Notes under the pieces: generated by a model | Seen by the model: only the letters and a program-made list of their open reading frames with translations | What the model was told of the DNA's origin: nothing | Databases searched by the model: none | Origin: a virus | Lineage: Duplodnaviria; Heunggongvirae; Uroviricota; Caudoviricetes | Strand: one strand, 5' to 3' | IMG/VR virus record: IMGVR_UViG_2690316285_000006 | Length of the DNA: 5,920 nucleotides | Shown here: positions 1 through 5,920 of the stretch, one piece after another | How positions within the stretch are numbered: the stretch's first letter is position 1 | Layout: each line of letters starts with the position of its first letter | Position numbers and translations under genes: made by a program

Positions 1-1623
1 AATGATCCCTGTAACTTTGCTTTTGGTAGTAGTTCTGAATCAGAAGTGAAGAAATTCAAGGATGGTAAATTTCTTCCAGCTATTGAAACCAGTTCAGTAC
101 TAAAGCCGTTAGTAACCGATAAGAATGATAAGAACGCCGCCAATAACTCTAAACAAACACAAATGGTGAACGGTACTTTTATCTATTGGTTGAACCTCAA
201 CACGCCGGGGAACCTTCGCGGTATCACAACACGCTGTGTTCTGTTAGATGAGGTCAGTAGCTGCGAAATCACTGATGAAGGGAACCCAATCAAACTGGCA
301 GAAGCACGTACCAGTACCTTCGGTAGTGACTCACTGGTGGTTGTATCTTCCACGCCATTGTATAAAGACGATTTAATCAATGCTGAGTACAACCTCAGTG
401 ATAAACGTAGGTACTTTGTTACTCACACATGCGGTCATGAATATACTTTTGAATGGGAACAAGTAGCGTTTGAATTTAAGCAATTAGAAAATGGTAGATC
501 CATTCCTGATAGTACTACTACTCGTTTGTTATGCCCTCATTGCAATGAGGGAATAGATGAACATACACGGCATCAGATGGTTGATAATGGTCGATGGATT
601 GCAACTAATCCAGATGGGGAACCGGGTGTAGTAGGGTATCAAATCAGTAGAATGTATTCACCTCTGAATACTATTACTGAAATGGTTTCAAAGTTTGCTG
701 ATGCTCTATATAACTTCAATCTTCAAACCTTTTACAATAACGAATTGGGCTTGCCATTCGAAGATGAGTATCAAAAAGAATTAGATATTCTCCAATTAGA
801 ATCCCTACGAGAAGATGAATTTAACCTTTATAAAATTCCTGAAAGTACCTTAGCGTTGTGTATTTCAGTTGATCAGCAGGGTGATAGGCTGGAAAGTCTG
901 CTTTTAGGTTTTGATGAAAAGAACATTTATGTACTTGGGCATGAGTTTTTCTACTCCCACGATTGTACGAAGATTGAAGCCCCAGCTTGGAAGGATTTAG
1001 ATCAGTTTTGCCGTCAGGATTTCAGTACTGTATCAGGTCGCATAGTACCTACACTGGCTGTGTTCATTGATGCAGGGAACGGTAACGCTACGGATACTGT
1101 GAAAAAATTCACTACACGTTGGAGTAAGTATCATCCGATCAAGGGTAGCAGCTCCACTACTGGTGAACTATTCAAGACCAGTACTCAGGCGGGGTACAAA
1201 CTACAGATCCTAAACGTACATGAACAGAAGAACACGATACGCCGCCTCCTGAACCTGATGCTATCCAGTGAGGCAGATAACGCCCCGGTTAAGCTCCGCT
1301 TCAGTAGTACCTTACCATCAGATTTCTTTGAGCAACTTTCAGCAGAGGAGTTAAAACCCGCTGGTGGTAAGTTGGTATGGCGATTAAAGAAAGGTCAAAG
1401 AAGAAATGAGGCTTTAGACCTAATCTGTTATGGAATGATCGCCATAGCATATGCCCAATCAAAATTAGGTACTCAACCATTCAGGAAGTTACGCGATTAT
1501 AAAGCACAGGAAACCACTAAATACGAGATAAATAAAGTAGAAGAACCAAAACCAGAAACAGTACAAAAACCAAAACGGAATAGACGTACTGGAATGGGAT
1601 CAAACTGGTTCGGTAAAAGATAA
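1..1623 (+). CDS. terL: Terminase large subunit, lambda gpA-like (5'-partial; C-terminal part of ATPase domain plus nuclease domain and C-terminal tail)
   Basis: Frame 1 is open from nt 1 with no stop before the first ATG at 46, so the gene starts upstream of the window; the track ORF 46..1623 is the in-window remainder. Walker-B-like VLLDEV at nt 238-255, so Walker A should lie upstream. Cys/His cluster HTCGH ... CPHC (Cys codons at 430-432 and 532-534) and RRNEALD at nt 1399-1419 match motifs I recall from lambda gpA. RNase-H-like nuclease acidic motifs ISVDQQGD (nt 862-885) and FIDAG. Basic C-terminal tail. Stop TAA 1621-1623. Confidence 0.88.
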
Positions 1624-1626
1624 GGA
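1622..1626 (+). promoter_or_regulatory. Shine-Dalgarno-like AAGGA, 8 nt upstream of ATG 1635, overlapping the terminase stop codon
   Basis: Sequence taAGGAtatcaaaaATG read directly. Confidence 0.6.
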
Positions 1627-1634
1627 TATCAAAA

Positions 1635-2165
1635 ATGACACTTCTACCAGAAAAGATCTACATGGTATCGAATCCCATGGATCTAACGGTATTAGTACCC
1701 GCTGCTACTATTCTTGTTATTAGTTTTACATCATCTGGAAAAAGTACCTCATTAGATAATTTAAATGGTAGTACTTCAAAAGAATTTACGGTTGTATTAG
1801 ATATGAGTACAGCACAGGAATTACTATTCTGTACTCAAATATCTAATGGTCAAACCAGTACTTTTACTTCTGAAGTCATTAATCCATTACTTTATACTTC
1901 TGAGTACTCCCAATTAAAACAGATGATCAGTGAAATTGATCAGGTTATAGCTAATAAAATTGCAGGCGGTGCTAATTACTCAATAACAATTAATAATAAG
2001 ACTCTTGTAAGTGAATCATTATCATCGCTTGAATCAATGCGGGAACGCTATGTAAAACGTGCTAATGCTCTATTTGTGAAAATGAATGGCGGTACTTTCT
2101 CTAATGGCGGTAAACCAATCAAGAGTATTACGGTTTTCAGGCCTAAGCCAGGGAGTACACGCTAA
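1635..2165 (+). CDS. Head-tail joining protein with gpW-like C-terminal domain and ~90-aa N-terminal extension of unknown function
   Basis: Sits between terminase and portal, the lambda W position. The C-terminal ~80 aa ([22 protein letters not shown] / [14 protein letters not shown] / [21 protein letters not shown]) follows the gpW helix, beta-hairpin, helix pattern. SD AAGGA upstream. Stop TAA 2163-2165 overlaps the next ATG (TAATG). The N-terminal part is Ser/Thr-rich with a hydrophobic stretch (residues ~16-31). Confidence 0.6.
2151..2155 (+). promoter_or_regulatory. Shine-Dalgarno-like GGGAG, 9 nt upstream of portal ATG 2165
   Basis: Sequence ccaGGGAGtacacgctaATG read directly. Confidence 0.5.
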
Positions 2166-3673
2166 TGTTCTGGAATAAGAAAAATAAAAATTCAGAAACT
2201 AAACCCAAGAAGATTAAACAGGAACGTTCCTTAAAACAAAGTACCTTAAAACGAGATCTACAGGCAGTACGCAACACATCAGTAATGAACTTCGGATTCA
2301 ATTCAAACTCAGGCAGCAATATCAACTTCCTTCTGATGAAAGCACTACCTACCTTCAGGGCTTTCTCACGTGATGCAGTACTTAAGAATCCTATTGGTCG
2401 TAAGTACATGAACCTATCGGTAGATGGCGTTGTAGGCTCTGATGGCCTGTACGTTAAACCTTCAGTAGAGATTGACGGTACTGAAGAAGAAATCAACGGA
2501 ATCAATCTAACCTTGGAAAAGCTCTTTGACCGTTGGGCATATGATGCTGATCGTTTTAGTGTTGATGGCTCATTAAGTTTTGACCTGTTTCAGCAGAACG
2601 CAGAGAAGGTAAGGGTCCAGGATGGTGAATGCTTTATTCGTATACACAATATTAATAATACCATCAAGTTAGAAATTCTCGATACGGTTCGTTTGCTTCA
2701 GTTAAATAATCAACGTTTGAGTAATGGTAATTATATTAGTAATGGTATTGAATTTGATAAATGGCATAAGCCAGTTAATTACTATTTCTGTAAATTCGAT
2801 CCTGTTACCTATACTTATATCACTGGCGATTATGAAGTAATTCCCGCTGCGGAAATCTGTCACTACTTTATTGCTGATCAACAAGGCCAGGAACGCGGAT
2901 TGCCGGACATGGTTGCAACTTCCAAATTAATGGAAGATCTCAAGAACTTCACTGAGGCTGCGTTAACTGCGAAACGTGTATCTGCATCGTCAATGGCTTT
3001 TATTACCAATAATAACGACACTACCAGTACTGATCTGTTAGGGGCTGATGAACGAGAAGAAGTTACACCAGTATATACAGAGTATTTTGAAGCTGGCTTT
3101 ATTGGTGAGTTAGCCGAAGGGCAGGATATTAAAACTGTTACACCTACTAATGGTGTTGATGGGATTGATCAATTTACCAATGAATTGATGAATCAGATCT
3201 CGATGGGTCTGAACATAACAAAGCAAGCCTTATTATCTGATACATCCAATGCTTCATTTAGTGCAAGCCGACTTACTGAGAAATTACAACAAACTACATT
3301 CCGTACCCGTACTAATGTACTAATCAGTAAAGTACTTAAACCAATTTATATCGCCTGGTTAAAGAACGAAATGCTAAATAACAATAAGTTAAATCTAAGT
3401 TTCTCGAGCTTTGATGATCTTATTTGTGCTCGGTATATTTCTCAAAAGCCAATTAGTTTAGATCCTGTAAAGGATATACAGGCTGAACTACTCCAGTTAG
3501 AAGCAGGTATTAAATCTAAAACACAGGTTATTGCTGAGTTAGGCGGTGATCCAGTGAAGGTATTAGCAGAGGTACAGGCAGAAAAGGATAAAGAAAATAA
3601 AAACAAGGAAGTAATCCAGGATGGAAATGAAAAACCAGAAGAGGGAACTAACGAAACCCCTACAGGCGATTAA
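2165..3673 (+). CDS. Portal protein
   Basis: 502 aa ORF immediately after the terminase and gpW-like genes and before the prohead protease; size and position are typical for a portal. Motif [15 protein letters not shown] resembles a conserved portal segment as I recall it. Acidic, Lys/Glu-rich C-terminal tail. Start ATG overlaps the upstream stop. Confidence 0.8.
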
Positions 3674-5466: not shown

Positions 5467-5471
5467 AAGGA
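5467..5471 (+). promoter_or_regulatory. Shine-Dalgarno-like AAGGA, 7 nt upstream of ATG 5479
   Basis: Sequence taataAGGAttagataATG read directly. Confidence 0.6.
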
Positions 5472-5478
5472 TTAGATA

Positions 5479-5802
5479 ATGAGAGTATTTAAAGATACGC
5501 AGTGTGATGCGTTTCTAAATGCTTTCGGTCAGTCTATCCAAACTTGTACGGGAAGTACTTTTACAGGAATAGTAGAAGTACTTCCCGTTTCTATTGAGGC
5601 GGCAGGTGGATTTATCGAAAGCGTGGAAACATACCTAACAATCAGAAAGGACGATCTAATAACCGCAAACGTGGCAATTGGTACAGTACTAATCATTGAT
5701 GGTGTAAACCAGACAATCTATAACATTGAAGATGATCTATCAGGTATGGTTAATTGCTATTTCCGTACTTCTGCTGGTGCTTCATTTGCAGAGGACTACT
5801 AA
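5479..5802 (+). CDS. Head-tail joining / head-tail attachment protein, lambda gpFII-like
   Basis: 107 aa ORF directly downstream of the capsid gene. The segment IRKDDLITANVAIGTVLIIDGVNQTIYNIEDDLSGMVNCYFRT parallels lambda gpFII as I recall it (VRTDEV...GDTLTIGEENFWVDRVSPDDGG...LWLGR). Good SD. The assignment is by remembered motif pattern only. Confidence 0.55.
   Translation: MRVFKDTQCDAFLNAFGQSIQTCTGSTFTGIVEVLPVSIEAAGGFIESVETYLTIRKDDLITANVAIGTVLIIDGVNQTIYNIEDDLSGMVNCYFRTSAGASFAEDY
5791..5795 (+). promoter_or_regulatory. Shine-Dalgarno-like GAGGA, 8 nt upstream of ATG 5804
   Basis: Sequence GAGGActactaatATGATG read directly. Confidence 0.55.
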
Positions 5803-5803
5803 T

Positions 5804-5920
5804 ATGATGTTAGTACAAAAAGTACGGAATACGATGAAGCAGCTTATCAATGCTACTAAGAATCTGACAGTATCACGTGATGTTGATGTGGATTTGCCCC
5901 TATATTTCCAGACATCTGTT
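5804..5920 (+). CDS. Hypothetical phage structural protein (3'-partial, runs off the window); position suggests a tail-completion or neck protein
   Basis: ATG 5804 (second ATG at 5807) lies 1 nt after the upstream stop, with a GAGGA SD; the frame stays open to nt 5920 (39 codons: MMLVQKVRNTMKQLINATKNLTVSRDVDVDLPLYFQTSV). It is absent from the ORF track only because no stop falls inside the window. No recognisable motifs. Confidence 0.45.
   Translation, partial: MMLVQKVRNTMKQLINATKNLTVSRDVDVDLPLYFQTSV

Follow-up and report, generated by a model that had tools for sequence, protein, structure and literature searches.

A likely R4C/VP882-type head-and-neck operon in a Shigella sonnei prophage, with a candidate internal start in its protease–scaffold–capsid gene

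The closest described counterparts of the locus analysed here are the head-and-neck modules of Dinoroseobacter phage vB_DshS-R4C (hereafter R4C), for which the capsid (PDB 8GTA), the portal–adaptor (8GTD) and the stopper–terminator (8GTF) structures have been solved (PMC10276861), and of Vibrio phage VP882. In R4C the genes run in the order terS, terL, adaptor 004, portal 005, the 629-amino-acid (aa) gp006 and stopper 009; in VP882 the order is terS, a gpA-type terL, a 176-aa joining protein, a lambda-family portal, a 632-aa fusion of an S78 protease with a capsid protein, and an Hc1 stopper. The locus in question is a stretch of 5,920 nucleotides (nt) from the Caudoviricetes record IMGVR_UViG_2690316285_000006 of the IMG/VR database; we refer to the whole stretch as the window, count positions from its first letter, and find all of its head genes on the plus strand. 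Judging from its sequence, the window very likely holds the head-and-neck morphogenesis operon of a low-GC, siphovirus-type Shigella sonnei prophage that is being broken up by the insertion sequence (IS) IS2, with a module type that is shared with R4C and VP882.

Gene order and described relatives

The listing of open reading frames (ORFs) in the window gives a single, tightly packed plus-strand operon of five head genes followed by the first 28 codons of a further gene. The head genes and the functions predicted for them are:

1..1623, plus strand: large terminase subunit of the gpA type (ATPase and nuclease), from Pfam, phrog_15 and similarity to lambda gpA
1635..2165, plus strand: 176-aa portal adaptor (head–tail joining protein), from phrog_5774, a profile match to the R4C adaptor and an AlphaFold2 (AF2) model
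2165..3673, plus strand: portal protein of the lambda gpB family, from PF05136 and phrog_21; 1-nt overlap between its start and the adaptor stop
3621..5465, plus strand: 614-aa protease–scaffold–major capsid fusion, with Peptidase_S78 and Phage_capsid in one ORF, phrog_617; overlaps the portal gene by 53 nt
5479..5802, plus strand: 107-aa head-closure or stopper protein with a gpFII-like fold, from AF2 and Foldseek

The terminase matches the Pfam families GpA_ATPase (5.9e-39, 134.6 bits against a cut-off of 25.6, profile positions 54-247) and GpA_nuclease (2.1e-40, 139.2 bits against 22.5) as well as phrog_15 (2.9e-104), and shares 22% identity with lambda gpA over 523 aa (E 3e-9). Its N-terminal ~80 residues lie beyond the left edge of the window; the full-length relative at locus L012 (621 aa) aligns from residue 82. 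The portal protein belongs to the 'lambda family' PF05136 (3.7e-59, 201 bits against a cut-off of 32.9) and to phrog_21 (3.9e-70), and is 21% identical to lambda gpB in BLASTP (E 9e-17).

With R4C the window shares the gpA-type terminase, an immunoglobulin (Ig)-domain adaptor (178 aa in R4C), the lambda-family portal, the fusion (629 aa in R4C) and a gpFII-family stopper, all in the same order. In PDB sequence searches with the adaptor and the capsid, R4C is the top or sole match, and its stopper is one of the three best fold matches of the window stopper. The two modules are nevertheless only 20-25% identical, and the R4C host is an alphaproteobacterium. Additional genes in R4C, absent from the window, are one for a single-stranded DNA-binding protein that separates terminase from adaptor and two small ones that separate capsid from stopper, and the N-terminal domain of R4C gp006 gives no Pfam S78 match at E 0.01 or better, though its motifs align with those of the window. 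VP882 and Halomonas phage phiHAP-1 (Hapunavirus) have a head module like that of the window, including the 176-aa phrog_5774 protein and a fusion gene that overlaps the portal gene. They differ in being myoviruses with P2-like baseplate genes downstream and in showing only ~25% identity to the window; VP882 also has a 54-aa gene between capsid and stopper, where the window has only 13 nt.

In lambda, with the gene order A-W-B-C/Nu3-D-E-FI-FII, terminase, portal and stopper are of the same families as in the window, an adaptor gene likewise separates terminase from portal, and the stopper is again the last head gene. However, its protease gpC, with the nested scaffold Nu3, is of the S49 type, and its capsid protein gpE is encoded by a separate gene and belongs to another Pfam family, whereas the window has a fused S78 protease and PF05065 capsid protein. 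As gpE is an HK97-fold protein too, the difference in the capsid between lambda and the window lies at the level of the family and not of the fold. The window also lacks counterparts of lambda's packaging chaperone FI and decoration protein D. A preliminary description of this DNA had already noted that D-like and FI-like ORFs are missing, and we find the same, because the capsid stop (5465) and the next start (5479) are 13 nt apart and the ORF list of the window holds no unassigned plus-strand ORF of at least 40 aa outside the five head genes.

HK97 gp4 and gp5 are an S78 protease, with His and Ser at the same positions, and a PF05065 capsid protein, as in the window, and the HK97 capsid protein has an N-terminal scaffold-like extension that is removed (10.1101/2025.06.14.659615), as is proposed below for the fusion. 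In contrast to the window, HK97 has one gene for the protease and another for the capsid protein, uses a terminase and a portal of other families without similarity to those of the window, and has its adaptor gene after the capsid gene rather than between terminase and portal. HK97 moreover cross-links its shell, which R4C, the solved relative of the window, does not.

The protease–scaffold–capsid gene

The following features were distinguished within the fusion gene:

3621..4085, plus strand: S78 (HK97 gp4-type) serine protease domain, aa 1-155, with a Pfam S78 match and invariant His and Ser
3825-3827, plus strand: putative catalytic His69, aligned with HK97 gp4 H65
3963-3965, plus strand: putative catalytic Ser115, aligned with HK97 gp4 S114
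4086..4658, plus strand: acidic, helix-rich linker, aa 156-346, with 46 D+E against 21 K+R
4142..4154, plus strand: candidate internal ribosome-binding site AGAGGG (4142-4147) with an in-frame ATG (4152-4154, Met178), duplex with the anti-Shine–Dalgarno (anti-SD) sequence of -6.3 kcal/mol
4659..5465, plus strand: HK97-family major capsid protein domain, aa ~347-614, PF05065

Peptidase_S78 is matched at aa 61-153 (38.8 bits against a cut-off of 21) and Phage_capsid PF05065 at aa 350-608 (64.9 bits against 24.2), phrog_617 covers the full length of the protein (9.5e-84), and full-length alignments are obtained with R4C gp006 (629 aa; E 1e-29) and VP882 gp07. His69 and Ser115 are invariant among the relatives and align with His65 and Ser114 of HK97 gp4, which we take to be the catalytic residues of that enzyme. 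By its sequence the protease is of the S78 type, and its activity is predicted. No similarity to lambda gpC is seen in BLASTP, and no Pfam S49 match at E 0.1 or better. This bears out the earlier description of the protease as HK97/S78-type rather than gpC-type and as fused to the capsid protein.

The linker has no Pfam domain, and we infer that it is a scaffolding or delta-like domain that is removed at maturation. For the capsid domain the sole PDB sequence match is the R4C capsid protein (8GTA_A, 2.4e-9, aa 351-604). The solved R4C chain comprises 268 aa of the 629-aa gene product, and its start aligns at about aa 347 of the window fusion.

The start of the fusion gene is nested in the portal gene, 44-53 nt before the end of the latter, in the window (3621-3673), in locus L001 (12614-12663), in VP882 (L004 4678-4721) and in L012 (11987-12039); in R4C the overlap is ~4 nt. 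A start buried in the portal gene in this manner fits low, portal-coupled translation of the full-length form. The Met178 codon lies 32 codons past the PAD motif of the protease, its anti-SD duplex is similar in strength to those of the gene starts in the window, and initiation at this site is predicted to give a 437-aa scaffold-capsid product. An equivalent arrangement of Shine–Dalgarno (SD) motif and ATG occurs in L001, Escherichia phage DCP80, VP882 and R4C.

To assess this arrangement across the family, we looked, in representatives sharing at most 60% identity, for an ATG in frame that lies 15-50 codons past the PAD motif and whose SD duplex reaches -5 kcal/mol or is stronger. It is present in 22 of 27 lineages, whereas codon-shuffled linkers gave 4.2 +/- 1.8 (maximum 10 in 500 shuffles). 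When the five lineages that had prompted the idea are left aside, 17 of the remaining 22 still show it, against an expectation of 3.6 +/- 1.7 (maximum 10 in 300 codon shuffles). Out-of-frame ATGs gave counts of 0-3, as did control windows of equal size elsewhere in the fusion gene, and the excess is stable to the choice of window and threshold. Such an SD precedes 65% of the in-frame ATGs in the linker, versus 12% elsewhere. On balance these results tilt us towards the reading that the fusion genes of this module are nested two-product genes, in which the internal SD and ATG would direct synthesis of an abundant scaffold-capsid protein, while the full-length form, made from the start buried in the portal gene, would be a minor product that tethers the protease into the shell.

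Some observations pull the other way. A second SD-like ATG in the window, at Met157 (-8.3 kcal/mol), is due to conserved Gly codons, the acidic linker abounds in SD-like strings, and the support for internal initiation is purely computational. It is accordingly possible, though we think it doubtful, that the gene yields the full-length polypeptide only, so that all ~415 shell subunits bear a protease and the internal SD and ATG are a relic of once-separate genes or a by-product of composition. Consistent with this, the ORF is uninterrupted in all relatives, the prohead interior could by our own estimate hold 415 x ~345 residues, and the linker is rich in GAG and GGA codons, which make 20% of its positions SD-like. 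A relic, however, would be expected to decay at 25% protein identity, yet the in-frame SD and ATG are kept in 17 of the 22 independent lineages, and a by-product of composition is at odds with the codon-shuffle expectation, the low out-of-frame and control counts and the contrast between linker and remainder of the gene.

Nested genes of the kind favoured here have parallels in lambda C/Nu3, herpes simplex virus 1 (HSV-1) UL26/UL26.5 and HFTV1 gp17/gp17.5, where an in-frame start past the protease gives a shorter, more abundant assembly protein that shares the C-terminus of the longer one (10.64898/2026.09.13.751334), as is proposed for the window. The fusion would differ from these in that the shared C-terminal part includes the capsid protein itself and not the scaffold alone, and its internal start is so far a prediction from sequence. 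Protease–capsid fusions have been annotated in the RcC-cluster phages of Rhodobacter (PMC8601537) and in actinophage announcements, such fused genes being a matter of routine annotation; in the literature on these fusions we found annotations and neither a study of their translation nor a described internal start.

Age of the module and its neck genes

The preliminary description took the window to suggest that an HK97-type protease and capsid cassette had been exchanged into a conserved packaging and joining scaffold of the lambda type. Terminase, portal and stopper do belong to lambda families, and protease and capsid protein to S78 and PF05065 rather than to the S49 and gpE families; the contrast with gpC and gpE stands to this extent. 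In comparison with the nearest relative, L012, the fusion (80%) and the stopper (69%) are also less conserved than the terminase, adaptor and portal (92-97%), a point in favour of a swap whose mosaic junction the window would document. Such a swap is nevertheless improbable when the wider distribution of the module is considered. A scan of IMG/VR recovered at least 567 relatives of the fusion, and profile hidden Markov models built from relatives placed terL, adaptor and portal upstream of it in 48 of the 49 loci with enough upstream sequence and found the stopper after it in 36 of 56 loci. The combination and its order thus recur in R4C, VP882 and 48 of 49 viral contigs at 25-85% identity. 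Relative to L012, Escherichia coli MG48, DCP80, VP882 and R4C, in that order, the window proteins show identities of 92, 82, 34, 25 and 21% for terL, 97, 60, 33, 23 and 24% for the portal, and 80, 44, 31, 25 and 24% for the fusion. The relatives therefore rank alike for all three proteins, which indicates that the capsid cassette has co-diverged with the packaging genes. Furthermore, no break in composition flanks the fusion gene, and the deep overlap of its start with the portal gene is common to the window, L012, L001 and VP882.

A recent swap of the capsid cassette is therefore largely refuted, and the exchange cannot be read from the window itself. The block is an old and common module type, already structurally characterised in R4C, and not a recent mosaic; any exchange relative to lambda is ancient and defines the whole known module type. 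Similarity and synteny comparisons with lambda, HK97 and the relatives thus uphold the gene assignments other than that of gpW, and a module swap in no more than this loose, ancient sense. A far-fetched notion is that the single protease–capsid ORF arose by decay of a dying prophage, through loss of a stop codon or a frameshift that joined two genes. The IS-ridden state of the element in S. sonnei could be cited in its favour, but it is ruled out by homologues of full length (580-820 aa) in phages that have been isolated and are viable, among them R4C, VP882, the Xanthomonas FoX phages and Burkholderia Mica, by the at least 567 homologues in IMG/VR contigs, likewise full-length, and by PHROG 617, which covers the whole length.

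The closest relative of the fusion in the phage database, at 31% identity, is that of Escherichia phage DCP80 (PQ671644.1). This 141-kb record is classified in Straboviridae/Tevenvirinae and carries the module of gpA-type terminase, adaptor, lambda-family portal and fusion near its left end (L005 1734-7789), with all genes annotated as hypothetical. The classification or the assembly of the record may deserve a check.

The gene between terminase and portal (ORF176) was previously called gpW-like, as part of a lambda order A-W-B...FII. Terminase, portal and an FII-like stopper are indeed in place, and ORF176 has the position of lambda W between the large terminase and the portal; its homology to gpW did not hold up. 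No BLASTP alignment with gpW was obtained, the gpW family PF02831 is matched by none of 40 ORF176 family members, in which a Pfam scan gave scattered chance matches only, and hhalign of the family against gpW alone or a 15-sequence gpW alignment returned probabilities of 0.6-0.7%. The sole link, weak and indirect, passes through phrog_118, which is matched by gpW at 0.031 and by 24 of the 40 family members (best 1e-4). The gpW protein has 68 aa, no Ig domain and no detectable sequence similarity to ORF176, which has 176 aa and an additional Ig-like domain.

What ORF176 does match is the 'head-tail joining' family phrog_5774 (8.7e-11, and 40 of 40 family members), and its family profile matches the R4C adaptor (8GTD_M, 178 aa) at E 1.5e-4. 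No match was found by phmmer of the single sequence against PDB or by tblastn against 50,697 phage records. The AF2 model (mean predicted local distance difference test score, pLDDT, of 79) has an N-terminal Ig-like sandwich (aa ~7-82), followed by a helix/hairpin/helix region (84-150), made up of a helix at 84-109, short strands and a helix at 129-150, and a disordered basic tail; Foldseek searches of the whole model against PDB and BFVD returned generic Ig-like domains only, for the N-terminal domain. The gpW fold consists of a helix, a beta-hairpin, a helix and a disordered C-terminal tail, and the C-terminal half of ORF176 is predicted to have its secondary structure in the same order. The R4C adaptor comprises an attachment domain, a tube domain, an adaptor loop and a C-terminal hook, with 12 copies seated on the portal and the Ig domain contacting the capsid (PMC10276861), and the architecture of the ORF176 model agrees with this domain map. 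Sequence profile and model thus identify ORF176 as a predicted Ig-domain adaptor of the R4C/VP882 type, which by analogy with its R4C homologue (12 chains in 8GTD) would cap the portal as a 12-mer. Its function is very probably that of gpW, with membership of the gpW family unsupported by sequence.

For the 107-aa protein (ORF107), an AF2 model built on 25 homologues (pLDDT 81) has as its two best PDB matches in Foldseek lambda gpFII in neck structures, 8K37_M (E 1e-5, TM-scores 0.69/0.65) and 8XOW_f, followed by the R4C stopper 8GTF_M (E 1.1e-4); both 8K37 and 8XOW were confirmed to contain gpFII. The protein also matches phrog_82 at 0.0044, while phmmer of the sequence and the family profile, both against PDB, found nothing. 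The gpFII fold is a beta-barrel with an N-terminal extension. ORF107 is the last head gene, and tail genes follow it in S. sonnei 53G. An FII-like nature at the level of the fold, as predicted by the model, is supported, and in this sense the earlier naming of the ORF after the capsid gene as FII-like is confirmed.

One further feature lies inside the stopper coding sequence:

5548..5588, plus strand: 17-bp perfect hairpin with a 7-nt loop, -26 kcal/mol, then TTTCTATT (T-rich tract)

This hairpin, ~80 nt past the capsid stop, was the sole standout in a promoter and terminator scan of the window, whose other counts did not exceed those expected from shuffling. It is the most conserved nucleotide stretch of the stopper gene in 10 relatives, at synonymous sites, with 98.8% of cells paired. 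The compensatory pairs number three, all in one Pantoea prophage sequence, so that evidence from covariation is thin. When the 240 nt past the fusion stop are considered, the strongest hairpin is in the top 3% of the gene's windows for 24 of 26 lineages, usually within ~100 nt of the stop, and many of these are canonical terminators. The hairpin of the window is probably the partial terminator or mRNA 3' stabiliser that usually follows the capsid gene, displaced in this case into the coding sequence of the stopper.

State of the prophage and proposed working of the head

The assignment to S. sonnei follows from window positions 122-5889, which are 100% identical (5768 nt) to the chromosomes of S. 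sonnei 53G and other S. sonnei, and the stopper protein is 100% identical to a protein on 173 contigs whose listed sources are S. sonnei. The close homologues of the window genes are all in Enterobacterales prophages, and none of them bears a functional name. A megablast search of phages with the window returned only a 40-nt IS2 end, and one of complete E. coli genomes only two partial terminase matches and IS2 ends. The GC content of the window is 33-45%, well below the ~51% typical of Shigella and E. coli chromosomes. Downstream of the window, 53G carries genes for fibre, major tail and distal tail proteins and for a probable tape measure, the last assigned from its size and position, a set that gives the element a siphovirus-like appearance. 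The right end of the window is occupied by:

5804..5888, plus strand: truncated next neck or tail gene, first 28 codons, with 100% identity to the S. sonnei 53G locus (L008) up to 5889
5889..5920, plus strand: left end of IS2 (TGGATTTGCCCC...), matching IS2 transposase loci and 100% identical to the IS2 end at L008 3314-3345

The intact version of the truncated gene is found at L008 10326-10718 in 53G, where it encodes 130 aa without a PHROG match. Of three S. sonnei chromosomes examined, two, 53G and CP026802, have terL split at window position 122-127 by an IS2 whose target duplication is GAATG (L008 3314-4643 in 53G), and the third lacks the upstream part of terL. The terL of the window is uninterrupted at this position, and the 130-aa gene, truncated by IS2 in the window, is intact in 53G and CP026802. 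As terL and the 130-aa gene are hit in different strains, these are distinct IS2 insertions into the same prophage, and the element looks defective in every copy examined.

In E. coli AREA_C483 (L002 8830-12184) an IS3-family element interrupts a related terminase gene, which has 86% nucleotide identity over window positions 1-784. IS5 and ISSen4 come next and the remaining head genes are gone, so that this locus is another IS-eroded copy of the prophage family. Two genes past the stopper, 53G encodes an 883-aa protein (L008 10736-13387) whose N-terminal aa 2-150 match the major-tail-protein family phrog_158, fused to tail-fibre repeats and a Peptidase_S74 chaperone. It is followed by a separate 157-aa major tail protein (L008 13446-13919), also of the phrog_158 family, and a similar protein of 563 aa is present in the E. 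coli MG48 relative. A role as a tube-ring protein with fibres attached at the neck is possible for the 883-aa protein.

The reading of the window as an R4C/VP882-type head-and-neck operon has to be weighed against several points. The adaptor assignment rests on a match of E 1.5e-4 to one 4.7 A structure together with the PHROG match. The stopper scores 21.7 bits against the gpFII family PF05354 (E 3e-4), below the cut-off of 26, does not align with lambda gpFII in BLASTP, and reaches a probability of 2.9% in hhalign of its family. The maturation cleavage site of the fusion is only approximate, as the 268-aa R4C chain may correspond to the modelled part and not to the true mature N-terminus. 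An IS2 insertion is present in every S. sonnei copy of the element examined, so that the genes may no longer be used. Finally, all functions given here for this prophage were assigned by homology.

If these assignments are correct, the head and neck would probably work as follows. A gpA-type terminase would, by homology, package DNA via a lambda-family portal dodecamer. The shell would be built of one gene product, comprising the S78 protease, an acidic scaffold-like segment and the HK97-family capsid domain, that assembles around the portal, and the protease, being fused in the shell subunit, would be carried into the prohead as part of it. The full-length protease–scaffold–capsid protein would probably be the minor and the scaffold-capsid protein, made from the internal SD and ATG, the major member of a nested pair. 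After assembly the protease domains would cleave off the N-terminal ~345 residues to leave a mature capsid protein of ~270 residues. The R4C capsid has T=7 geometry with 415 copies and neither decoration protein nor cross-link. Because R4C is the closest solved relative, a T=7 shell without decoration protein or cross-links may be expected for the prophage as well, and a shell that needs no decoration protein would account for the missing D gene. Once DNA is packaged, twelve 176-aa adaptors would cap the portal, with their helical half extending the channel and the Ig-like domain leaning on the capsid, and a hexamer of the gpFII-like stopper would close the channel and receive the tail.

The window as such matters little, as it is a member of a module type already seen in R4C and VP882, though functions can now be proposed for two S. 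sonnei genes labelled only 'hypothetical protein' in the sources, namely the portal adaptor and the gpFII-like stopper. The nested-product idea is the only lead here worth experiment, and it is open to direct test in the cultivable relatives R4C and VP882. If true, the internal start would explain how phages with a fused protease and capsid protein set the ratio of protease to capsid and target the protease into proheads. It would also bring the capsid protein itself under the logic known from lambda C/Nu3 and herpesvirus UL26/UL26.5, and would add a bacterial-phage case to the nested protease/scaffold theme that is common to herpesviruses and archaeal tailed viruses.

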